DNA of 64,000 bases from Polyangium spumosum (lineage in GTDB: Bacteria > Myxococcota_A > Polyangia > Polyangiales > Polyangiaceae), in the NCBI RefSeq assembly GCF_009649845.1, contig NZ_WJIE01000009.1:224685-288684 (forward strand), in the 5' to 3' direction. Below the pieces are notes generated by a model. That model had not been told where the DNA came from, searched no databases, and saw only the letters and a list, made by a program, of their open reading frames with translations. This document shows, piece by piece, positions 4,082-14,854 of this stretch. A program made the position numbers and the translations under genes. Numbering within the stretch: the stretch's first letter is position 1; each line of letters begins with the position of its first letter.

Positions 4082-4714
4082 ATGAGCGCCGCACCGAACA
4101 TGGACGACGATGACGTGACGACGACCGTGATGGATCGCGCGGCGTTGCCCCCGGCGAGCGGAACGCGCGTCTCCGTGGCGCATTCCGAGCCGCCCCGGGA
4201 TACGTTCGTGGATCCACCCTCGCCGTGGACCCGTGTCCGAACCGCCGTTGGCGCCGCGTTTCGGCGTGTCCGTGAGGGATTCCGTAGGTCACGCCTCTCC
4301 GATCGTCTGCCGCCACTCCCTCCCCCACGCTCCATCACGGCGACCCGTGTATCCCCGGGAGGCGTCGGCCACGACGAGCGCGGCGAGCAGCTCCTCCTCG
4401 ACATCGTGCGCGCAGCGCGGCCCTATCAGGAGGCCGCGCTCTACGTCGTCAACTACGCCGTCGCTCTCAGGAACCTGGGGGACGACGCGCACGCCGAGGG
4501 GCTCGTGCACTTCGCGCTGGCTCGCATGCGCGCGGATGCCGGGGGGTTCGTAGCCATTGCGCGCCTGCGAGACAGGCTTCCGGAGCTGTCGTCCGCGGGG
4601 GCGCTCGTGCCCGCGCTAGGCCGTCTAGAGGCGGCCGGCATCGTCACACTCACGGCGACGACGGAGAGCGGATCGCCCCGGATCGAGCGCGTACAGCTCC
4701 GGGTCCCCCTTTGA
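4082..4714 (+). CDS. hypothetical protein
   Basis: The ORF has a plausible non-Arg-biased C-terminal half (LLLDIVRAARPYQEAALYVVNYAVALRNLGDDAHAEGLVHFALARMRA), possibly winged-helix-like. The start is uncertain (ATG 4082, or upstream at 4001). Confidence 0.35.
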   Translation: MSAAPNMDDDDVTTTVMDRAALPPASGTRVSVAHSEPPRDTFVDPPSPWTRVRTAVGAAFRRVREGFRRSRLSDRLPPLPPPRSITATRVSPGGVGHDERGEQLLLDIVRAARPYQEAALYVVNYAVALRNLGDDAHAEGLVHFALARMRADAGGFVAIARLRDRLPELSSAGALVPALGRLEAAGIVTLTATTESGSPRIERVQLRVPL

Positions 4715-5694
4715 TCCACCTGCGGCCCGTCGCCGTCCATTCCAGCCAGACGGAAACGACGAAAAAGCAGCCGAATCGTCTTTTTCTGCCGCGCCACGGC
4801 ACCCCATTTGCTGGGGAGCGGGCCGAGGAGGTCTCCGTGTCACCCCACCGCACCCTCACCGCTGCCTGTCTTGCAATCGCGCCGCTCTTTGCAGGTTGTC
4901 TCGGCTCTGACGCCTCCACCGAGGCCCTGGAGATCACCGCGGAGCACGAGGTCGATCTCTCCTTCTCCACCTATTACACCGCCAGGCGCGACGTACGCCG
5001 CTGCGCCTATCCCCAATGTGGCGGCTTCTTCATCTCCGCCGTCAATCAGGAGAAGACGACGTGCGCCGACGGCACCACCGCCGAGGAGTGTTACGTCGCC
5101 GATCTCCAGTTCTCCAGCCTCCTCCGCCTCGCGGGCGTCGAGGGGGTCGTCCGCGAATCCATCGGATTGCAGCGAGAAACGACGCGCGCCGTCCTCTACG
5201 GCGACCTCTTCCCGGGCACGAGCGGCCTCGGCACGCTCTCGTTGCGGTTTGCCTGGGTCGCCCTCGAGACGGCCGAGCTCAAAGGGTCGTTTTATCGCGT
5301 ATTGCACAACGGCGTCGTCTGCGTCGCCGCGCCCTGCCCGAGCTTCGACCAGGAATACCTCAATTCGGGCACCGCGCGGACGTTCCACGAGGTGCACCTC
5401 CGCGAGATCCCCGGCGCCGGTCGGGACGAATTCGACTCCGGCACCGCCCTCTTCTCGTCCCTCGGCATGATCCTGACCGGACAAAACGTCGTGATCGAGG
5501 ACTACGGACCGGCCGGGGACGCCGTCGTCTTCCGGGCGAACCAGGGATTCCTCCCGGTCATCATGCCCTCCATCCGCGGCCTCCGCGCCCCCGCCGAGCC
5601 GCCGGTCTTCGACCGCGGCTTCCGCAGCGGAATCGAGGGCGGCGAGGGCGGCGAGGGCGGGAGCGGGGGCATCCGGAACACGAGCACGCAGTGA
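4711..5694 (+). CDS. hypothetical lipoprotein
   Basis: The internal sequence VSPHRTLTAACLAIAPLFAGC has a lipobox LFAGC, so the likely true start is GTG 4837. The TTG at 4711 overlaps the upstream stop as TTGA. The mature part is Cys-containing (CAYPQCGGFF, CVAAPCPSF) with a Gly/Glu-rich tail. Confidence 0.5.
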   Translation: MIHLRPVAVHSSQTETTKKQPNRLFLPRHGTPFAGERAEEVSVSPHRTLTAACLAIAPLFAGCLGSDASTEALEITAEHEVDLSFSTYYTARRDVRRCAYPQCGGFFISAVNQEKTTCADGTTAEECYVADLQFSSLLRLAGVEGVVRESIGLQRETTRAVLYGDLFPGTSGLGTLSLRFAWVALETAELKGSFYRVLHNGVVCVAAPCPSFDQEYLNSGTARTFHEVHLREIPGAGRDEFDSGTALFSSLGMILTGQNVVIEDYGPAGDAVVFRANQGFLPVIMPSIRGLRAPAEPPVFDRGFRSGIEGGEGGEGGSGGIRNTSTQ

Positions 5695-6134: not shown

Positions 6135-9100
6135 CTACGCCGCCCCGAGCAACGTGAGCACGGCCGTCTCGCCGAACTGCTCCCGCGCCAGCCGGGCGGC
6201 CTCCGCGTTCGACGGCACCTCGCGCAAGAGGCGCGTTTGTCCCTCCGGATCACGCACGTCCGCGCACTGCTCGCCGAGCAGCCCGAGCGCCGCGCGGAGC
6301 TCGTCCTCGAACGCGCCGACCTCGCCCGCGGCCCGCAGCGCCTCCGCCGCCGCGAGGCGCAGGTCCACCTCGATCGCGCCCACGCCGCCCGCCGCGCGCA
6401 CCTCCACGAGCGCCGCGCGCGCGAGCGAGAGCGACTCCGCCCCCCGCCCGAGCCGCGTGAGGGCGCGGATCCGCGTCGCCGTCAGCGACAGGCGCCGGAG
6501 CCGCATCGGATCGACGAGCGCGAGCCCCCTGTCGACCTCCACGAGCGCCCGCGCCGCGTCGCCCTCCACGAGCGCCACCCGCGCCGCGATCCCCCACGCG
6601 AGCGCCACGTCGAACGGGTTGAGCCCCGCCTCCGCCACGAGCGCCTCCGCGAGCGCGCGCGCCTCCTTTTGCGCCTCCGGCGTCGACTGCTCGGCCAGGA
6701 ACAAAGCACGCGAGAGCCGCACCGCGGCCTTCGTGCGCCTGTCATCGAGCTCGATCGCGAGCGCCTCCGCCTCCACGAGCCGCGCGAGGGCCGCCTCGTG
6801 CTCCCCGAGCGCCACGAGCGCCTCGCCCGCGCGCGCCGCGCAGACCACCTGCATCCGCGCGTCCCCCGCGGCCTCGAACGCGCGCATCGCGTCCTCGATC
6901 CGCTCGAGCTGCGCGAGCGGATCGTGCTTCGCGCTCCGACCGTACTCGTACGCCGCGAGCCGCGCCCAGCCGTGCGCGCTCGGATCCACCGCGCCCGTCT
7001 GCTCCAGCGTCTCACGCATCCGCGCGAGCACCCGGCTCGACGCGCCCCGATCGAGCCGCACCGCGAGCAGGCAAAGCAGCCGCCCGAGGCACTCGGCGTA
7101 GGCCCCCAGCGCCTCGAGATCCGGCGAGAGCGCGAGCAGCTCGTCGAGGTGACCCGCGAAGGCCTCCACGCCCGCCCCGAGCCCCGCGAGGGTACAGACG
7201 AGCCCGAGCACCCGGCAAAACCACGTCGAGCCCTCCGGCAGGAGCGGCAGCGCCTCCGTCCCCCTCCGGCGCGCCTCGTCCCAGGCCCCGTTCCAGTACA
7301 GGACGGAGCACGCCATGCCACGCACGAGCCCGAGCTCGGCCCCCTCCGCGCCGAGCTCCTCGGCCTTCGCCGCGTGCAGGCGTGTCCCTTCGAGGTCGTT
7401 CCTTTCGAACGCCTCGCGCGCCGCTCGCACGTGCAGCACCCGCGCGCGCGCCGCGTCGCCGCCGCGTCGCCAGTGGTCGGCGAGGCTCTGCGCGTCGCTC
7501 TCGCCCGCGGCCTCCAGGAACAGCGCCGCGCGCGCGTGCCCCAGCGCGAGCTCCTCCTCGCCGAGCAGCCCGTACGCCGCCTCCCGCACGAGCACGTGCC
7601 GGAAGACGTACTCCACGTCCCCCGCGAGCCTGCTCGTCCGTTGCTTCTCCAGAAGCTCCGCCCGCGTCAGCGCCGCGAGCGCCTGATCCACCGACGCCTC
7701 GTGCCCCTGCCGATCCATCAGCGCCACGACGCCGCCGCGCCAGAAGCGCGCGCCGAAGAGGCTCGCCGCCACGAGCGCCCGGCGCGCCTCCGGCCCGAGC
7801 CTGCCGAGCCGCGCTTGCAGCATCACCAGGAGCGTCGCCGGCGGCGCGCCCTCCTCGCCGCCCGTCGCCCGCGCCGCCCGCGCGAGCTCCTCCAGGAACA
7901 GCGGGTTTCCCGCGGCGCGCTCCACGATCCGCTCCACCACCACGTCGCTCGCGCCCTGCCCGAGCGCCGCCCGCGCGAGCTCCTCGGCGTCGCGGCGCAC
8001 GAGCGGCGACAGCACCATCCGCTCCGCCCGATCGCCCCAGAGCCGCGGGTAGACGTCCTCGAGGTCCGGCCGCGCCAGCGCGAGCACGAAGAGCGGCTGG
8101 TCCGACAGCTCCACGAGCGCGCGCTCCACGAGCCGCACGCTCGGCGCGTCGCCGTGGTGCACGTCCTCCAGCGCCAGCACCACCGGCCGCTCCGCGCATA
8201 CGCCGCGCAGGTCGTCGAGCAACACGCGCTCGAGCTGCGCGCGTGTCGCCGCGCGCCCCTCGCTCGTCGTGAGCTCGGCGAGCCCGCGCCCCCGGAGCGC
8301 GTCCGCCAGCATCGTGTAGGCCGGCGCTCCCAGCGGATCGCTGTGACCCACGAGGAAAAGCACGCCGTCCTCGCGCGCCTCGAGCCTCGCGCGGAGCTCC
8401 TGCAAGAGCCGCGACTTGCCCATGCCCGGCGGCGCCACCACCACGACCGCCCGCGCGAGGGGCTCCTCCCGCGTCGCCTCGAACGCGCGCAGCAAGAGGT
8501 CGAGCTCGCGCTTTCGCCCGACGAACGGCAGGGTTTCTCCGGGCCGGACTGCCCGCGTGAGCTCCTCGCCGGCGAGCAGGATCCGCCCGCCCTCGCGCGC
8601 CGTCGGGAACCGCCCTCCGACGAGCCCCGCCGTCACGGCGTCGACGATCACCACCCCACGCGGCGTGTCCTCCGCCGCGAGGGCCTCCGCCGCTTGATCC
8701 ACGGCGCGCCCGATCGGCTGCTCCCCCGAGACGAACGCGGGCCCCGTCGCGAGCGCGATCGTCGCCCCTGGGGCGGCGGCCCGGATCACGAGCGCCGCGC
8801 GCGTGGCCGCCGTCGCTTGGTCCGTCGCGTCCCCGCCGAAACGCGCGAACGCCGCGACGAGGGTCCCGTCGGGCCTCTGGCCGCGCGAAAACGCCCCGTT
8901 TCGCGCGAGGATCGCCCCGATCTCCTCGGCGCCCGCGCCCTCCGGGAGCGAGAGCACGAGCACGCTCGAGAGCTCCTGCACGTCCCGCGCGAGGGTCGGG
9001 TAAAACGCCCCCTTGTGCGCCTCCAGATCGAGGTGCTCGGCGAGCCCTTCGAGGAGCGAGGCCGCGCTCGCCGGCCGCTCGGCCGGGTCTTTCCGCAGCA

Positions 9101-9869
9101 AGCTCTGCACGAGCGCCGCGACGGGCGGCGGCACCCCCGGGCGCGACGACAGGAGGCTCGGCGCCTCCGCGCTCAGGATCTTCGACATCACCAGCACCGG
9201 GTCCGTCGCGACGAACGGCGTCCGACCCGCGAGGCACTCGAACAGGATGCAGCCGAGCGAGAACATGTCCGAGGCCGGACCGACGGGCTCTTCGCTGCCC
9301 ACCTGCTCGGGCGACATGTACTCGGGCGTCCCGATCGGCCGACCCGCCGCGGTGATACCCGTCGACGAGCCCATCGGCCGCGCGATGCCGAGGTCCACGA
9401 TCGTCGCCTGGTCGATGTCTCCGCCGCGGAGGAGCACGTTCGAGGGTTTGAGGTCCCTGTGGACGATGCTCCTCGCGTGCAACGCGGCGAGCCCTTCGGT
9501 GATGCGCCGGAGCAGCAGCAAGGCCTCGCCCGTCGAGAGTGGCCCGCGCGCGAGCCGCTTTGCGAGGTCCTCGCCCTCCAGCCATTGCATCGCCAAAAAG
9601 TGCCGACCGTCCTCGTTCTGTCCGTGCGCCACGTACGAGACGACACGCGGATGCCGGATCAGGGACAGAATTCGTGCTTCCCGCGCGAAGCGCTCGGCGT
9701 CGACGGACGTCGCGTCCGTATGCAGGAGCTTCAGCGCGACCTCTTCGCCGGTCTCCTGATCACGCGCCCGGTAGACCTCGCCCATGCCGCCGCGGCCGGC
9801 GAGCGAGCGGACCACGAACCGCCGCGCGATCAGCGTTCCGGCGGGCAGGGGCTTGCTCCTCGGGGCCAT
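6135..9869 (-). CDS. PknK-like Ser/Thr protein kinase: kinase domain + nucleotide-cyclase-like region + AAA/STAND NTPase + TPR-like C-terminus (1244 aa)
   Basis: N-terminal Hanks kinase motifs: GRGGMGEVYRA, VALKLL, HRDLKPSNVLL, DLGIAR, GTPEYMSPE. A P-loop VAPPGMGKSRLL sits near residue 480. The remainder is a long Ala/Leu-rich helical repeat region. Confidence 0.9.
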   Translation of the reverse strand: MAPRSKPLPAGTLIARRFVVRSLAGRGGMGEVYRARDQETGEEVALKLLHTDATSVDAERFAREARILSLIRHPRVVSYVAHGQNEDGRHFLAMQWLEGEDLAKRLARGPLSTGEALLLLRRITEGLAALHARSIVHRDLKPSNVLLRGGDIDQATIVDLGIARPMGSSTGITAAGRPIGTPEYMSPEQVGSEEPVGPASDMFSLGCILFECLAGRTPFVATDPVLVMSKILSAEAPSLLSSRPGVPPPVAALVQSLLRKDPAERPASAASLLEGLAEHLDLEAHKGAFYPTLARDVQELSSVLVLSLPEGAGAEEIGAILARNGAFSRGQRPDGTLVAAFARFGGDATDQATAATRAALVIRAAAPGATIALATGPAFVSGEQPIGRAVDQAAEALAAEDTPRGVVIVDAVTAGLVGGRFPTAREGGRILLAGEELTRAVRPGETLPFVGRKRELDLLLRAFEATREEPLARAVVVVAPPGMGKSRLLQELRARLEAREDGVLFLVGHSDPLGAPAYTMLADALRGRGLAELTTSEGRAATRAQLERVLLDDLRGVCAERPVVLALEDVHHGDAPSVRLVERALVELSDQPLFVLALARPDLEDVYPRLWGDRAERMVLSPLVRRDAEELARAALGQGASDVVVERIVERAAGNPLFLEELARAARATGGEEGAPPATLLVMLQARLGRLGPEARRALVAASLFGARFWRGGVVALMDRQGHEASVDQALAALTRAELLEKQRTSRLAGDVEYVFRHVLVREAAYGLLGEEELALGHARAALFLEAAGESDAQSLADHWRRGGDAARARVLHVRAAREAFERNDLEGTRLHAAKAEELGAEGAELGLVRGMACSVLYWNGAWDEARRRGTEALPLLPEGSTWFCRVLGLVCTLAGLGAGVEAFAGHLDELLALSPDLEALGAYAECLGRLLCLLAVRLDRGASSRVLARMRETLEQTGAVDPSAHGWARLAAYEYGRSAKHDPLAQLERIEDAMRAFEAAGDARMQVVCAARAGEALVALGEHEAALARLVEAEALAIELDDRRTKAAVRLSRALFLAEQSTPEAQKEARALAEALVAEAGLNPFDVALAWGIAARVALVEGDAARALVEVDRGLALVDPMRLRRLSLTATRIRALTRLGRGAESLSLARAALVEVRAAGGVGAIEVDLRLAAAEALRAAGEVGAFEDELRAALGLLGEQCADVRDPEGQTRLLREVPSNAEAARLAREQFGETAVLTLLGAA

Positions 9870-9978
9870 GCGCGACCATTGGTTTCATACCCGGGCGCGC
9901 CTGCTGTCAAGCGCTTCGCCGCAGCGCGTCGGCCTTTGGCGCTTGCGAGAGCGTCGAAGCTTTGAGAAATTCATCGGC

Positions 9979-10527
9979 GTGTCGTGCCCCAAGCTCATCA
10001 CCGAGCGCCTCGAGCTGGTCCCCATGTCGGTGGAGGTCGTCGAGGCCGTGCTCGATGGGCGCCGCAGCGATACCGAGGCGCTCCTCGGCGCGAAGATGCC
10101 AAACGCGTGGCCGGGCCGCGCGCTCGTCGAGCGGGCGTTCCTGGCGCGGCTCGACGCGGTCCGCGCCGATCCCGAGCATCGGCTCTGGGGTGATCGTGTG
10201 GCCCTGTCGCGCGAGGCTGCCCGGCGGGTCATCGGCAGCGTGGTATTTCACGGGGGGCCGGACGAGACCGGCCTCGTCGAGGTGGCCTACGGCATCGAGG
10301 AGGAATCGCAGCAGCAGGGCTTCGGCTTCGAGGCCGTGAGCGCGTCGGTGGCCTGGGCGCTCGCCGAGCCGCGCGTGCGCGCCGTGCGGGCCTCCACGTT
10401 CACCTGGCACCTCGCGTCTCGCCGCATCCTCGAGAAGCTCGGCTTCCGCGTGGTCGCCACGGAGGACGATCTGCTCGGCGAAATGCTCAAGTACGAGGTC
10501 GCCCCGAGCGCGTTCCGTCTTCGCTGA
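9979..10527 (+). CDS. GNAT family N-acetyltransferase (RimJ/RimL-like)
   Basis: TERLELVPMSVEVVEAVLDG is a typical RimL-type N-terminus. The acetyl-CoA binding region is present (VEVAYGIEEESQQQGFGFEAVSASVAWAL). The upstream part of ORF 9784.. is Arg-rich, so the start is moved to GTG 9979. Confidence 0.75.
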   Translation: MSCPKLITERLELVPMSVEVVEAVLDGRRSDTEALLGAKMPNAWPGRALVERAFLARLDAVRADPEHRLWGDRVALSREAARRVIGSVVFHGGPDETGLVEVAYGIEEESQQQGFGFEAVSASVAWALAEPRVRAVRASTFTWHLASRRILEKLGFRVVATEDDLLGEMLKYEVAPSAFRLR

Positions 10528-10587
10528 CGCCTCCACGCTGGTTTTCCTGGGGAACCTTCCTGTAAGCTCCCCCGGAGCGGAGCGTTC

Positions 10588-12171
10588 ATGCCGGACGACA
10601 TGCTGATCTCGTATCCGAGGCGCGGGTGGCTCGTGGCTCTCCTCGTCGCGCTGGGCTCTTTTGCGGCGGGCGCGGGCCCCGCGTCGGCCCAGGAAGCCGC
10701 GGCCGCGCCGCCGATCGAGCCTGCCCCGATCCCGCCGCCGCCCGTCGAGGTCGCGACGGAGGAGCCACCGCCGCCGCCTCCTCCGCCTCCGCCGTACGTG
10801 CCGCCGCCTCCGCCGTACAGGCCGCCGCCTCTGCCGCCCAAGCCGAACCGCTGGTATTTCCTCCAGCCGGGCGTCTTTCCCGAGGCGGACCTCTTCGCGG
10901 GCATCGGGCAGCTCGGGCTCGTCACGCCCTCGGCGAAGCAATTTTACGGCGGCGTACAGGTGGGCCTCTTCGGCGCGACGGCCGAGCACTTCACGGGCCT
11001 CGCGCAGGTCGGCCTCGTGCACACCAACGCCGAGCGTGTCTTCCGGGGCGGCGTCGAGCTCACGCTCGGCAGGAACCTCGCGAAGGAGTTCTACGGCGGC
11101 GCGCAGGTCGCGCTCTACCGCAACGTCGTCAGCGATCTCTTCGTGGGCCTCGCGCAGGTCGCGGTCCTGCGCAACGACACGCGCCGCTTCGCCGGCCTCT
11201 TGCAGATGGGCGGGCGCAACGGGGCCGAGGCGTTCATCGGCGGCTTGCAGCTCGGCGCCTACAACGTCATCGGCGCCGGCCTCGACTGGGACGACGAATA
11301 CGGATACGGCGGCCGCCGCGGCGGCGGCGGGTTCGTCGGGGCATTGCAGATCGGCGCATACAACAAGATCGACCACGGGAATTTCTCGGGCCTCCTCCAG
11401 ATCGGCGGCGCCAATGCGGTGGAGGACGGCGCCTTCCGCGGCGTGGCCCAGGTCGGCCTCCTGAGCTACGTCGACGGCTCGTTTTACGGCGTCGGCCAGG
11501 TCGGCCTCCTGAACGGCGTCGACGAGTCGTTTCATGGGATCGGCCAGCTCGGCGCGGTGAACATCGCCGTCGACGATTTTTACGGCGTCTTCCAGGCCGG
11601 CGGCGCCAACGTGATCATCGAGGACGACTTCCACGGCGTCGGGCAATTCGGCCTCGCTTCGTACGTCGCCGAAGACTTTCGTGGCGTCCTGCAGACGAGC
11701 GCGATCTTCAACTACGTCGGCGAGGGCTTCGGCGGCGTCCTGCAGCTCGGCGGCATCTTCAACTACGTCGCCGACGATTTCCAGGGCGTCTTCCAGATCG
11801 GCGCCTTCAACGGCGTGCGCGAGGAGTTTTACGGCGTCTCGCAGATCGGCGTCGTGAACATGACCCGCGACGACCACGTCGGCGCGCAGCTCGGCGTGGT
11901 CAACATCGTCAAGGACCAGATCCACGGCCTCCAGGCCGGGTTCTTCTCGGGCGCCGACGAGGTCACGGGCGTGCAGCTCGGCGTGGCCAACGTGAGCAGT
12001 CGCCTCACGGGCACCTCGATGGGCCTCTACAACCGTACGAAACACGTCCGCGGGCTCCAGATAGGCCTCATCAACCAGACCGATCGCCTGCGTGGCGCGC
12101 AGATTGGCCTCATCAACCTCTCCAAGCAGGGCGGCCTCCGCTTCTTCCCCGTGCTGAACATCGGCCTCTGA
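10588..12171 (+). CDS. secreted repeat protein: signal peptide, poly-Pro stalk, ~25 tandem 16-20-aa repeats (F-x-G-[VL]-x-Q-[VIL]-G-x-x-N)
   Basis: Signal peptide RRGWLVALLVALGSFAAGAGPASAQE. A P10-containing linker follows (EEPPPPPPPPPPYVPPPPPYRPPPLPPKP). The repeats include FYGGVQVGLFGATAEH, FTGLAQVGLVHTNAER, FYGVGQVGLLNGVDES, RGLQIGLINQTDRL and RGAQIGLINLSKQ. The C-terminus is RFFPVLNIGL. Confidence 0.8.
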   Translation: MPDDMLISYPRRGWLVALLVALGSFAAGAGPASAQEAAAAPPIEPAPIPPPPVEVATEEPPPPPPPPPPYVPPPPPYRPPPLPPKPNRWYFLQPGVFPEADLFAGIGQLGLVTPSAKQFYGGVQVGLFGATAEHFTGLAQVGLVHTNAERVFRGGVELTLGRNLAKEFYGGAQVALYRNVVSDLFVGLAQVAVLRNDTRRFAGLLQMGGRNGAEAFIGGLQLGAYNVIGAGLDWDDEYGYGGRRGGGGFVGALQIGAYNKIDHGNFSGLLQIGGANAVEDGAFRGVAQVGLLSYVDGSFYGVGQVGLLNGVDESFHGIGQLGAVNIAVDDFYGVFQAGGANVIIEDDFHGVGQFGLASYVAEDFRGVLQTSAIFNYVGEGFGGVLQLGGIFNYVADDFQGVFQIGAFNGVREEFYGVSQIGVVNMTRDDHVGAQLGVVNIVKDQIHGLQAGFFSGADEVTGVQLGVANVSSRLTGTSMGLYNRTKHVRGLQIGLINQTDRLRGAQIGLINLSKQGGLRFFPVLNIGL

Positions 12172-12359
12172 GCCCGAGGGTGAGGACCAAAGGCCTCACC
12201 CGGCGCGGCGTCGAGGCATCGATGTAGGGGGGGCGCGCGACGCTCGCGGGCCCGCTCCTCGGCCATCTCGGGCCATTTGCGCATGGCATCTTCCTTGCTG
12301 TCGTGCCATGAACCGGGCGCTCCGCGACGAACGTCCGACTCGAATACCTCCGAGGAACC

Positions 12360-13478
12360 ATGGCTCGACGTACACTTCTTTCGGCCTCGATGCTGGCCGC
12401 GATCCTCTCCGTGCCCGCCGCGTCTCACGCGCAGAACGTTGCCACCAAGCAATACGTGGACGTCGCCATTGCCGAGCCGCCAAAGCAGGACGGGCTCGAG
12501 ATCACCATGAAAAACGGCGCCACCTTCTCGCTCGTGGATACCCGCGACGTGGTCGGCGTCACCCCCAATGGCTCGACCTTCACCGTGGGCCTCAAGTTCG
12601 ACGGCGTGGCGACGTACCGGAGAGGCGGCCACGAGTGGCGCACGATGCTCGGCATCAACGAGGCGCTCACGAAGACGCCGGCCCTCGAAGACATCGTCAA
12701 GAGCGCCGACAATTTCAACGTGGAGAGCACCTATCTCTATTTCGTGCGCCCCTGGTTCGGCCCGTTCGCGCGCGTCACGCTGGGCACGCCGCTCTTCCGT
12801 GGCTTCGACGTCCGGCCCAACGACACGACGTACACGATCGCCCGCCTCTCCGGCGCGACCGAGACCGTCACCGCGCGGCGCCTCACGCTCACCGACCCCT
12901 TCCGTCCCCTCACGCTGAAGCAGACCATCGGCCCGTTCGCGCGCCCCGTCTCCGGCGATCGATTCAACCTGGAGACGCGCGTCGGCCTCGGCGGGTTGCA
13001 GACCTTCGCCGACGGGCAGCTCATCCTGAAGGACGACGCGGCCACGGCCGATCGCGTCGAGGTGCAGGAGCTCCGGGACGTGCTTCAGCTCGGCGTCGAG
13101 GGCTCGCTCGAGGTGTGGGGCGCGCTGAACGACAAGAAGATCGCCTACAAGCTCGGCGTCGGCGCGCTCATCCCGGCCTGGAACAACGACATGCCCGCGG
13201 CCGGAGAGGCCAAGAAGAGCGCGCTCTCGCTCACCAACCTGGACATCGGCGCGGCCATTTCGTTCAAGGTGGTCGAGTGGGCGACGCTCGATTACGAGCT
13301 CAAGCTCGTCCGCCAGCCCCAGCTCACCGAGCAATGGCAGATACGTAACGGAATGATGCTCACCCTCGGCCTCGGTTATTCCAGGAAGCCGCCTGCGCCG
13401 CCCGAGCCCGCGAAGCCCGCGGCCCCCGCCGCCGCGCCCGCCGCGCCCACGCCCGCTCCAGCGCCGGCCGCGAAATAG
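12360..13478 (+). CDS. secreted/outer-membrane-like hypothetical protein
   Basis: Signal peptide MARRTLLSASMLAAILSVPAASHAQ. Alternating amphipathic beta-strand patterns suggest a beta-barrel. The C-terminal tail is Pro/Ala-rich. Confidence 0.6.
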   Translation: MARRTLLSASMLAAILSVPAASHAQNVATKQYVDVAIAEPPKQDGLEITMKNGATFSLVDTRDVVGVTPNGSTFTVGLKFDGVATYRRGGHEWRTMLGINEALTKTPALEDIVKSADNFNVESTYLYFVRPWFGPFARVTLGTPLFRGFDVRPNDTTYTIARLSGATETVTARRLTLTDPFRPLTLKQTIGPFARPVSGDRFNLETRVGLGGLQTFADGQLILKDDAATADRVEVQELRDVLQLGVEGSLEVWGALNDKKIAYKLGVGALIPAWNNDMPAAGEAKKSALSLTNLDIGAAISFKVVEWATLDYELKLVRQPQLTEQWQIRNGMMLTLGLGYSRKPPAPPEPAKPAAPAAAPAAPTPAPAPAAK

Positions 13479-13525: not shown

Positions 13526-14854
13526 GTGCAAACCCCCACCCGTCCGGGCACATCTGCGAAGCAGTGGGCCATGATCGACGGGGGGGAAACATTGAACTCC
13601 AACAAATACATCGTCCTCATCGCGGCGCTGCTCGCGCCAGCGTGCGCGCCTGACGAGCCTTCCACGCAGCCGGCGGAAAAGTCTCTCCTCGACGCGCCTG
13701 TCGGGGGTTCGGGCATTCAATACCGCATGACCTCCACGATCGCCCCGGGGGTCGAATCCTATGGTTGTCGCCTCTTCCAGGTGCCTCCCGAGGGGCTCGT
13801 GATCCGGGGCCAAGACGTCGCGTTCGGCCCGGGCGGACACCACGTCCTCCTGTACCGGACCCCATATCGACAGGTTCCGTCCCACGATGAAGAGGGCGTC
13901 GCTGTCGACGCGCTCACGGAGCACGATTGCTCCGAGGGCGCGACCGCGCGCTGGAAGGTCGACGCCGTGCTGGGCGGCTCCGAGAGCTTCGGCAGCGTGG
14001 GGCTGCTCCATCGATTGCCCGATGGCGTGGGCCTCGTCGTGGAGCCGAACGTGGTGCTCGTGATGAGCACCCATTACCTCAACACCACGAGCGCCCCGCT
14101 CGAGGTCGACGCCCGCATCAACGTCTACACCATGCCTCCCGAGGATCTCCGGATCGAGGCCGGCCTCCTTTACATGGACAACCAGGCCCTGCGCGTCGCC
14201 CCCAACAGCGAGGCCACGGCGCGCATGCGTTGCCCCGTGCCCGACGACGTGCACGTGGTGAGCCTGCAATCGCACATGCACGCGCGGGGCGCCTCGTTCG
14301 AGGCCACGCTGCTGCCGCCCGCCGGCGCGGCCACGTCCATTTATTCGACGACGTCCTGGCAGGAGCCGCCCGTACGCGAGCTCGACCCGCCGCTGCTCCT
14401 GCCCCGGGGGAGCACCCTCGAGATCCGCTGCGATTTCCGGAGCGGCGAGAGCCGGCCCATCACGTGGGGCCTCTCCTCGAACGACGAGATGTGCCAGCTC
14501 ATCGGGCCGTACTTCCCGAAGAACCCCCATTTCGAGCGATGCGAGGACGAGAGCGGCGCGCCCGCCGCGACGTGGGTGGGCCACGGGAAGGCCGACGGCA
14601 CGGAGACGGCCGCTTGCCTGAAGCAGGCGGTGTCGACCGAGGAGGGGGAGGGGTACGCGTACAACGATTGCGTGCTCGGCGCCTGCCCGGCCATCGCGGC
14701 CGAGGTCTCGGCGCTCGTGCGTTGCCAGAAGGCGAGTCGGGCCGGGGCTTGCGCGAATACGTGCCAGGGCGAGAGCCCCGGCGATTGCGCGTCTTGCCTC
14801 GCGGGGGCCTGCGCCGCGGAGGAGCAGGCCATGTGCGGCGCGAATTGCCCGTGA
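13526..14854 (+). CDS. copper type II ascorbate-dependent monooxygenase-like (PHM/DBH fold) secreted lipoprotein with Cys-rich C-terminal tail
   Basis: Candidate CuH ligands: HH105/106 (GGHHVLLY) and H162 or H183. Candidate CuM ligands: H250-x-H252 (QSHMHARG) and M322 in an EMC motif (NDEMCQL). The spacings between ligands are 57-77, 67 and 70 residues, matching the PHM H107/H108, H172, H242/H244, M314 pattern. N-terminal signal with LLAPAC. The C-terminus has 11 Cys. Confidence 0.65.
   Translation: MQTPTRPGTSAKQWAMIDGGETLNSNKYIVLIAALLAPACAPDEPSTQPAEKSLLDAPVGGSGIQYRMTSTIAPGVESYGCRLFQVPPEGLVIRGQDVAFGPGGHHVLLYRTPYRQVPSHDEEGVAVDALTEHDCSEGATARWKVDAVLGGSESFGSVGLLHRLPDGVGLVVEPNVVLVMSTHYLNTTSAPLEVDARINVYTMPPEDLRIEAGLLYMDNQALRVAPNSEATARMRCPVPDDVHVVSLQSHMHARGASFEATLLPPAGAATSIYSTTSWQEPPVRELDPPLLLPRGSTLEIRCDFRSGESRPITWGLSSNDEMCQLIGPYFPKNPHFERCEDESGAPAATWVGHGKADGTETAACLKQAVSTEEGEGYAYNDCVLGACPAIAAEVSALVRCQKASRAGACANTCQGESPGDCASCLAGACAAEEQAMCGANCP

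Follow-up and report, generated by a model that had tools for sequence, protein, structure and literature searches.

We identified a gene for a 527-aa exported repeat protein in a 64,000-nucleotide stretch of the Polyangium spumosum genome. This stretch, hereafter the window, has a G+C content of ~70%, its nearest relatives are Polyangium genomes, and all positions below refer to it. The gene and its associated features are as follows, with the evidence in brackets.

10588..12171, + strand: coding sequence of the 527-aa exported repeat protein together with its stop codon (open reading frame list, codon-position GC, GGAG, orthologues).
10588..10689, + strand: predicted Sec-type signal peptide, aa 1-34, predicted cleavage ASA/QE (sequence; site kept in orthologues).
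10690..10845, + strand: proline-rich stalk, aa 35-86, with P10 and a PPYVPPPPPY motif (sequence; orthologue comparison).
10846..10893, + strand: conserved N-terminal cap, aa 87-102, NRWYFLQPGVFPEADL (orthologue identity).
10894..11871, + strand: 19 long repeats of 16-17 aa, F-x-G-x-x-Q-[VIL]-G-x-x-N, aa 103-428 (repeat table; DNA periodicity; pLDDT >90).
11269..11337, + strand: Gly-rich insert loop of 23 aa, aa 228-250, which breaks the array (anchor spacing; pLDDT; indels).
11872..12126, + strand: six short canonical LA_2272 repeats of 14-15 aa, x-G-x-Q-x-G-x-x-N, aa 429-513 (profile matches).
12127..12168, + strand: C-terminal cap, aa 514-527, QGGLRFFPVLNIGL, the end of the protein (orthologue identity; family comparison).
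12169..12213, + strand: stable hairpin over the stop codon and onward 3', a probable terminator without a U-tract (MFE, shuffles).
10626..12227, + strand: shadow open reading frame (533 aa) in another frame of the same strand, non-coding (Arg-rich translation; fails the GC3/GC2 coding test).
9907..12045, - strand: shadow open reading frame (712 aa) antisense to the repeat gene, non-coding (Arg/Asp/Glu-rich translation; fails the GC3/GC2 coding test).

The GC content at codon positions 1, 2 and 3 of 10588..12171 (+) is 0.71, 0.44 and 0.92, as for a real gene in a high-GC genome, and we therefore take this frame to be the coding one. A GGAG sequence (10579-10582) lies 5 nt before the ATG, and Polyangium genomes carry orthologues of the protein with 69-75% identity. 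The 527-aa reading frame, its coding GC pattern and its orthologues establish that the gene called here by an initial annotation made from the sequence is real. That annotation was also right to regard two long alternate-frame reading frames as shadows, both of which are Arg-rich and fail the GC3/GC2 test. The window contains no paralogue of the repeat protein. The hairpin at the stop codon has a predicted MFE of -26.3 kcal/mol (z = -3.4; equally stable structures in 0 of 200 shuffles); it is absent from a consensus terminator scan and has no T-run. Its position at the stop codon suggests that the gene 3' of the repeat gene is probably a separate transcription unit.

Genes in the neighbourhood encode a kinase, a GNAT protein, a DUF3078-like protein and a Cu-monooxygenase-like protein. 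Six close Polyangium genomes share the order Ser/Thr kinase-AAA (-), GNAT (+), repeat gene (+), 372-aa secreted protein (+) and Cu-monooxygenase-like protein (+). The stretch of this order from the kinase to the 372-aa protein is limited to close Polyangium genomes; at orthologues of 54-60% identity only the GNAT gene still adjoins, and distant homologues (P0004 and P0006) have other neighbours. Four lower-GC 'Polyangium' MAG contigs, for which GC3 gene calling is unsuitable, were left out of this synteny comparison. A search for a conserved partner gene beyond the genus found none, and no secretion or assembly partner can be named. Ser/Thr kinases occur near 20 of 82 compared loci. We treat this proximity as not significant, because myxobacterial genomes are kinase-rich and the window together with its close orthologues makes up seven of the 20 loci.

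The initial annotation described a signal peptide followed by a poly-proline stalk, and both descriptions stand. The predicted signal peptide (M1-A34) consists of an R11R12 n-region, a hydrophobic core and then A-S-A/Q, and AlphaFold2 models aa 3-26 as a helix with low pLDDT. The A-x-A/Q-E cleavage site is conserved across orthologues and the RR pair is not, which argues for Sec rather than Tat export and led us to reject a Tat signal as unlikely. The protein contains no Cys and therefore has no lipobox and should not be lipidated. By these sequence criteria, it is a Sec-exported, non-lipidated protein. The 52-aa proline-rich stalk contains P60-P69 and then YVPPPPPY. Its length differs between orthologues, its C-terminal part (YVPPP...LPPKP) is conserved, and it is modelled with a pLDDT of 38-77. 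The PPYVPPPP motif also occurs in two distant homologues (P0002 and P0006, 31-38% identity).

Both flanks of the repeat array are conserved. Mean identity to orthologues is highest among all regions at aa 87-102 (0.83), which we read as an N-terminal cap; the first modelled strands begin at aa 92. The C-terminal cap has an identity of 0.78 among orthologues. Its tail (...PVLNIGL) alternates L-x-I-x-L and ends in Leu, not in an aromatic residue.

We counted 25 repeats between the two caps (aa 103-513), in agreement with an initial estimate of ~25, the last six of which lack the F-x-G element. Their proposed length of 16-20 aa needs narrowing: 16-17 aa holds for 19 repeats, the last six are 14-15 aa long, and the upper part of the range is absent. 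The register, which had been called invariant, is strongly conserved at F, G, Q, G and N but varies from 14 to 23 of 25 repeats. Counted from the Gln, the conserved positions are F(-5) and G(-3) (19/25 each), Q(0) (23/25), G(+2) (21/25) and N(+5) (14/25). The motif G-x(1,2)-Q-x-[GA] is present in 25 copies, compared with 2.8 +/- 1.7 (maximum 10) in 2000 shuffles, and residue identity in the protein autocorrelation reaches 0.22 at a spacing of 16 and 0.19 at a spacing of 17 against a background of ~0.07. The repeat periodicity is thus far beyond chance. At the DNA level, the autocorrelation of the repeat gene peaks at 48 bp (z 7.3) and 51 bp (z 5.4) and shows no periodicity at 54-60 bp, so that only the lower part of the expected ~48-60 bp period was recovered. 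Tandem Repeats Finder detects just two short arrays, and the copies are diverged at the DNA level.

The array is also not as unbroken as it first appeared, since its 25 regular repeats are interrupted by the Gly-rich insert at aa 228-250. The anchor spacing widens to 33 aa at this loop, which is indel-prone and has a pLDDT of 59-74 and an orthologue identity of 0.58. In the repeat profile, Gly and hydrophobic residues fill almost every position from -5 to +4, and acidic or polar residues fill positions +8 to +10. This pattern suggests that a solenoid built from these repeats may be acidic along one edge and may perhaps expose a hydrophobic face.

The comparison set for the protein comprised 10 sequences, both orthologues and paralogues, with 43-75% identity, drawn from Polyangium and allied MAGs. 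All are colinear and contain 24-25 repeats; each repeat has its own orthologue, and indels are confined to the stalk and the Gly-rich loop. The structural positions F, G, Q, G and N are 0.85-0.96 identical among orthologues, compared with 0.55-0.70 for the intervening positions. The variation in repeat number for which the initial annotation suggested looking is therefore not seen among orthologues. These alignments show an old array of constrained length that is not a contingency repeat.

This constancy bears on the proposal that the protein is an amyloid-like scaffold. A curli-like functional amyloid or matrix fibre subunit would be expected to grow end to end, which the Pro-containing, conserved caps at both ends should block, and the 25 coils are non-identical, with each conserved between species. 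The protein has no match to the curlin repeat (Curlin_rpt, PF07012) even at E <= 10, and neither csgB/E/F/G-like neighbours nor a csgBEFG-type locus was found around the gene. We thus rejected the curli subunits CsgA and CsgB as counterparts and consider the amyloid reading very improbable.

The initial annotation could not name a family, but a curated model does so. NCBIfam NF047436 (LA_2272 family surface repeat-containing protein) matches the protein in seven stretches with 93.3 bits (E 5.4e-27; cut-off 25 bits), the best of which in the full protein is aa 488-513. When searched separately, aa 433-527 score 70 bits in three stretches and aa 100-432 score 35.4 bits, so that each part exceeds the cut-off alone. 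This difference suggests that a canonical LA_2272 tail follows a divergent, longer repeat variant. These profile matches identify the window protein as a member of the LA_2272 repeat family. Two related models fall short of their cut-offs. NF047435 (LA_2272/LA_2273 family lipoprotein) scores 29.1 bits against a cut-off of 30 bits, and this membership was rejected on the score, the absence of Cys and the A-x-A-type cleavage site. NF047437 (VC2662 family, equivalog) scores 65.2 bits, less than half of its 140-bit cut-off, over positions 82-173 of a 187-position profile, and was rejected on both counts. Pfam searches with the 527-aa protein found nothing relevant even at E <= 10, and the family profile, searched against PDB sequences, retrieved nothing beyond chance matches (TcdB repeats, E 0.29).

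LA_2272/LIC11665 of Leptospira interrogans, the NF047436 prototype, shares with the window protein tandem G-x-Q-x-G-x-x-N repeats of 14-15 aa. Members of the NF047436 family and the window protein are both exported and both end in a GG...N-x-G-hydrophobic cap. The window protein differs from the NF047436 type in its poly-proline stalk and in that 19 of its 25 repeats are a 16-17-aa variant with an extra F-x-G, weakly detected by the model (35 bits). It further differs from the LA_2272 lipoproteins in having no Cys and in its NF047435 score (29.1 against 30 bits). With Vibrio cholerae VC2662 (NF047437) it shares the last ~90 residues, comprising short repeats and the cap (aa 433-527 correspond to profile positions 95-185), and it is about three times longer than the VC2662 family profile (187 positions).

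A profile search of 1.84 billion representatives retrieved 9,015 proteins at E <= 0.001 and 5,254 at E <= 1e-10. The family ranges over Myxococcota, Bacteroidota, Spirochaetota, Verrucomicrobiota, Chlamydiota and Vibrio. Genomic matches come from Polyangiaceae, Labilithrix, Niastella, Saprospiraceae, Sphingobacteriaceae and Elusimicrobiota, as well as from Chlamydiae, Verrucomicrobia, Kiritimatiellae and Spirochaetota. At least eight long-type motifs are present in 44 of 238 retrieved relatives. We found no Pfam entry, solved structure, dedicated paper or published function for the LA_2272 family, so the profile search does not place the protein in a well-characterised family of known function. 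The literature on LA_2272/LIC11665 consists only of entries in lists of predicted outer-membrane proteins. VC2662, described as an 'uncharacterized hypothetical protein', has been deleted in V. cholerae in the delta-ompU background only, and the deletion did not alter the colony phenotype further (PMC10865864). The 'knotted solenoid' described in a 2026 paper is an unrelated Brevundimonas fold. The window protein is thus an additional, experimentally unstudied member of a catalogued family.

Repeat profile and family range also speak to a Ca2+-stabilised RTX-like beta-roll or an ice-binding protein, the latter having been suggested by the initial annotation. The profile contains no GGxGxD nonapeptide, HemolysinCabind (PF00353) is not matched, and export through Sec by an N-terminal signal is expected in place of type I secretion. 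Nor does the profile reveal a Thr/Ser/Asx-lined flat face or a T-x-T or T-x-N register, and family members come from Leptospira, Vibrio, gut Bacteroidaceae and ruminant Kiritimatiellae. Solved small beta-solenoids such as region IV of the Marinomonas primoryensis antifreeze protein (3p4g), ryegrass IBP (3ult) and CsgA (8c50) have no sequence relationship to the window protein, which has neither a Ca2+-binding GGxGxD-type turn nor an ice-binding face and gives no significant global Foldseek match to them. We regard both the RTX and the ice-binding variants of this idea as extremely improbable.

A beta-solenoid or beta-roll had been predicted from the regularity of the repeats, and AlphaFold2 returns a repetitive solenoid. 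The model (22-sequence alignment) has a mean pLDDT of 85.8, a pTM of 0.72 and 385 residues with pLDDT >= 90. Confidence exceeds 90 over most of aa 91-500 except the insert loop and declines toward the C-terminal cap. The predicted structure consists of beta-strands and regular turns throughout, and DSSP assigns long strands linked by 2-3-residue turns. A second AlphaFold2 model, built from an independent alignment of Bacteroidota relatives, produced the same solenoid. A Foldseek search of the PDB found no solved structure at E <= 0.001 (best TM-score 0.22). The fold class is therefore predicted to be a beta-solenoid whose particular coil is without a solved counterpart.

AlphaFold2 can be over-confident on repeats, and the solenoid could be an artefact that conceals another beta architecture, such as a membrane-embedded sheet, a barrel or hairpin repeats. 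The long strands with short turns and the low Foldseek TM-scores (<= 0.22) are consistent with such a fold, as are a repeat body that is 61% non-polar or Gly and a C-terminus that resembles the beta-signal of outer-membrane proteins. We consider an artefact improbable for several reasons. First, two independent alignments led to the same solenoid. Second, one Bacteroidota relative (P0033) is modelled as a solenoid and a true barrel side by side, which indicates that AlphaFold2 tells the two apart. Finally, a conserved register of Gly, Gln and Asn that recurs every 14-17 residues is what solenoid coils typically show, and the repeat has no alternating polar/non-polar pattern. The beta-signal of BAM-dependent outer-membrane proteins is a C-terminal strand of alternating hydrophobic residues with an aromatic last residue; the tail here has the L-x-I-x-L alternation but a terminal Leu, as in 12 of the 116 relatives that end at the cap.

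In other family members, the LA_2272 array is usually a C-terminal module behind varied N-terminal domains, including caspase, ankyrin, PEGA, FGE-sulfatase/GldK-like lipoprotein, and STN with CarboxypepD_reg, a variety that fits a carrier role. The extra N-terminal domain of P0004-type homologues has no match in Pfam or the PDB. Among 164 members with a recognisable cap, 116 have their C-terminus within 3 aa of it; 57 of these terminate in F, 27 in W and 12 in L, and F, W or Y together account for 87 of the 116. A further 18 proteins extend more than 120 residues past the cap, and 12 of these end in Phe, in keeping with an association with the outer membrane.

The Bacteroidota relatives are the most informative about location. 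Their solenoid is preceded by STN (Pfam accession PF07660) and NTE-like (Pfam accession PF13715) domains, and the P0033 model, which also matches the solved SusC NTE domain, places a predicted 8-stranded outer-membrane barrel after the solenoid. At the three Bacteroidota loci checked with Pfam (Niastella, Saprospiraceae and Sphingobacteriaceae), the gene follows genes for an ECF sigma factor and a FecR anti-sigma factor, and a FecR-like neighbour is common to seven Bacteroidota loci. STN and NTE domains are periplasmic in TonB-dependent transducers, and both termini of OmpA-type 8-stranded barrels are periplasmic. The expected position of the solenoid in the Bacteroidota branch is therefore below the outer membrane, in the periplasm.

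The Bacteroidota STN-NTE-LA_2272-barrel proteins (P0033 and the protein at the Niastella yeongjuensis locus L060) have the same repeat module and predicted solenoid as the window protein. They add STN and SusC-NTE-like domains in front and an 8-stranded barrel behind, none of which the window protein has, and their genes stand where a trans-envelope signalling operon has its transducer, unlike the window gene. The window protein also has no lipid anchor, and its last residue is Leu and not an aromatic one, so that attachment to the outer membrane, like its location and role, is inferred from relatives only. The word 'surface' in the NCBI name of NF047436 runs counter to a periplasmic reading. 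The relatives with STN, NTE and an 8-stranded barrel make the surface structure envisaged by the initial annotation doubtful and argue for the periplasmic side of the outer membrane.

The same relatives weigh on the suggestion of an adhesin. A surface adhesin or fibrillar-adhesin stalk would hold the solenoid outside the cell on its proline stalk, where it could bind prey, substrate or other cells. Type V autotransporter and TPS passengers (pertactin, EtpA and HMW1) are likewise long beta-helical rods exported via Sec. However, the window protein has neither the C-terminal 12-stranded translocator nor the N-terminal TPS domain of these systems, and its coils are smaller (14-17 residues). Pfam, NCBIfam and the Cys count reveal no autotransporter barrel, TPS domain or lipobox in the protein, the neighbours give no such Pfam or NCBIfam match either, and no TpsB/Omp85-type gene was found within ~6 kb. 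Type V autotransporters and TPS exoproteins were thus rejected as counterparts. Moreover, the stalk is N-terminal with nothing to anchor it, the repeat number is fixed, unlike that of fast-evolving adhesin stalks, and the STN, NTE and barrel of relatives place the solenoid in the periplasm. We consider an adhesin unlikely. None of the adhesin, amyloid, ice-binding and RTX readings is supported; at least one defining test speaks against each of them.

Our preferred reading, to which we give about an even chance, is that the protein forms a fixed-length LA_2272 beta-solenoid rod with a structural or tethering function that associates with the outer membrane, most likely from the periplasmic side. 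In the predicted solenoid, every repeat would make up one of the 25 coils, and stacked Phe, Gln and Asn residues and corner glycines would hold the coils together. As beta-solenoid coils are generally spaced by ~0.48 nm, 25 coils predict a rigid rod of ~12 nm, which would be closed by the conserved caps at both ends and preceded by the 52-residue proline stalk. The C-terminal GG-...-N-x-G-hydrophobic strand may dock the rod to the membrane or to a partner barrel, and the stalk may reach toward another envelope layer or a partner. Such a protein would have no catalytic role and would act within the cell envelope as a rod that gives structure or serves as a tether. Other lineages combine this module with varied N-terminal domains and join it to a small predicted outer-membrane barrel.

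A broader and speculative version of this proposal, which we think improbable, is that LA_2272 solenoids are a widespread, unrecognised class of periplasmic rods that have a fixed length and are tethered to the outer membrane. They would replace the TonB-transducer plug and 22-stranded barrel in Bacteroidota ECF-sigma/FecR signalling, and the barrel-less Polyangium form with its PPYVPPPP stalk would be a spacer or tether from the outer membrane to peptidoglycan or the inner membrane.

As one more member of a catalogued family, the window protein by itself matters little. The family is of somewhat greater importance, as it comprises ~9,000 representative clusters across the groups named above, has no Pfam entry, and its predicted solenoid has no near counterpart among solved structures. 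An envelope rod of modular design, open to fusion with a small outer-membrane barrel and placed in ECF-sigma/FecR operons, is a testable lead for studies of envelope architecture or signalling. Structure determination could well start from the Polyangium protein, whose 25 coils are stable.

The GNAT gene immediately upstream is the only neighbor that still adjoins the LA_2272-family repeat gene in orthologues down to 54-60% identity (relatives' loci L009-L011). Co-transcription of the two genes is possible. The following genes surround the repeat gene in the window:

4711-5694, + strand: DUF6748 protein (E = 5.7e-50)
6135-9869, - strand: Ser/Thr protein kinase-AAA_16/AAA_22 ATPase fusion, 1244 aa
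9784-10527, + strand: GNAT protein (Acetyltransf_3), on the same strand as the repeat gene and 60 bp upstream of it
12360-13478, + strand: protein of 372 aa that carries a signal peptide and a Pro/Ala-rich C-terminal tail; its match to DUF3078 is weak (E = 4.7e-4) and falls short of the cut-off
13526-14854, + strand: secreted protein of 442 aa, rich in Cys, that contains a domain resembling Cu2_monoox_C (E = 1.1e-7)

The 372-aa protein, which may be an outer-membrane barrel, is 83-90% identical and adjoins the repeat gene in six close Polyangium genomes; it is missing beside more distant orthologues. The Cu2_monoox_C-like and DUF6748 proteins are both retained in the Polyangium syntenic block. 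The kinase-ATPase gene is transcribed divergently from the GNAT-repeat gene pair and has a high G+C content (0.73-0.77), which accounts for a 1303-aa shadow ORF over it on the + strand. Of the 82 loci compared, 20 have a kinase nearby, a proximity that probably reflects nothing beyond the density of kinases in myxobacteria.

Four contigs labeled as Polyangium or Polyangiaceae MAGs (L009, L010, L012 and L013) have a G+C content of 56-59%, versus ~70% in the window, and yield few clean ORFs by a GC3-based gene filter. These contigs may be poorly assembled or may stem from another lineage. Both L009 and L012 belong to one MAG, which therefore carries two paralogues (60% and 43% identity).

LA_2272-repeat genes are also found in Bacteroidota:

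L060, 3414-7110: Niastella yeongjuensis
L070, 3390-7062: Saprospiraceae MAG
L072, 3830-7227: Sphingobacteriaceae MAG

At all three loci, ECF-sigma and FecR (anti-sigma) genes immediately precede the repeat gene, a slot usually occupied by a TonB-dependent transducer. The encoded proteins have N-terminal STN and CarboxypepD_reg domains and a C-terminal part predicted to form an 8-stranded barrel.

The proline-rich stalk of the window protein (10690-10845) contains a PPYVPPPP(P) motif that is retained even in homologues at 31-38% identity, including P0002 and P0006. Some of these homologues have an extra ~130-aa N-terminal domain, for which we found no match in Pfam or PDB. Conservation of the proline motif suggests that PPYVPPPP(P) serves in binding and is not just a passive linker.
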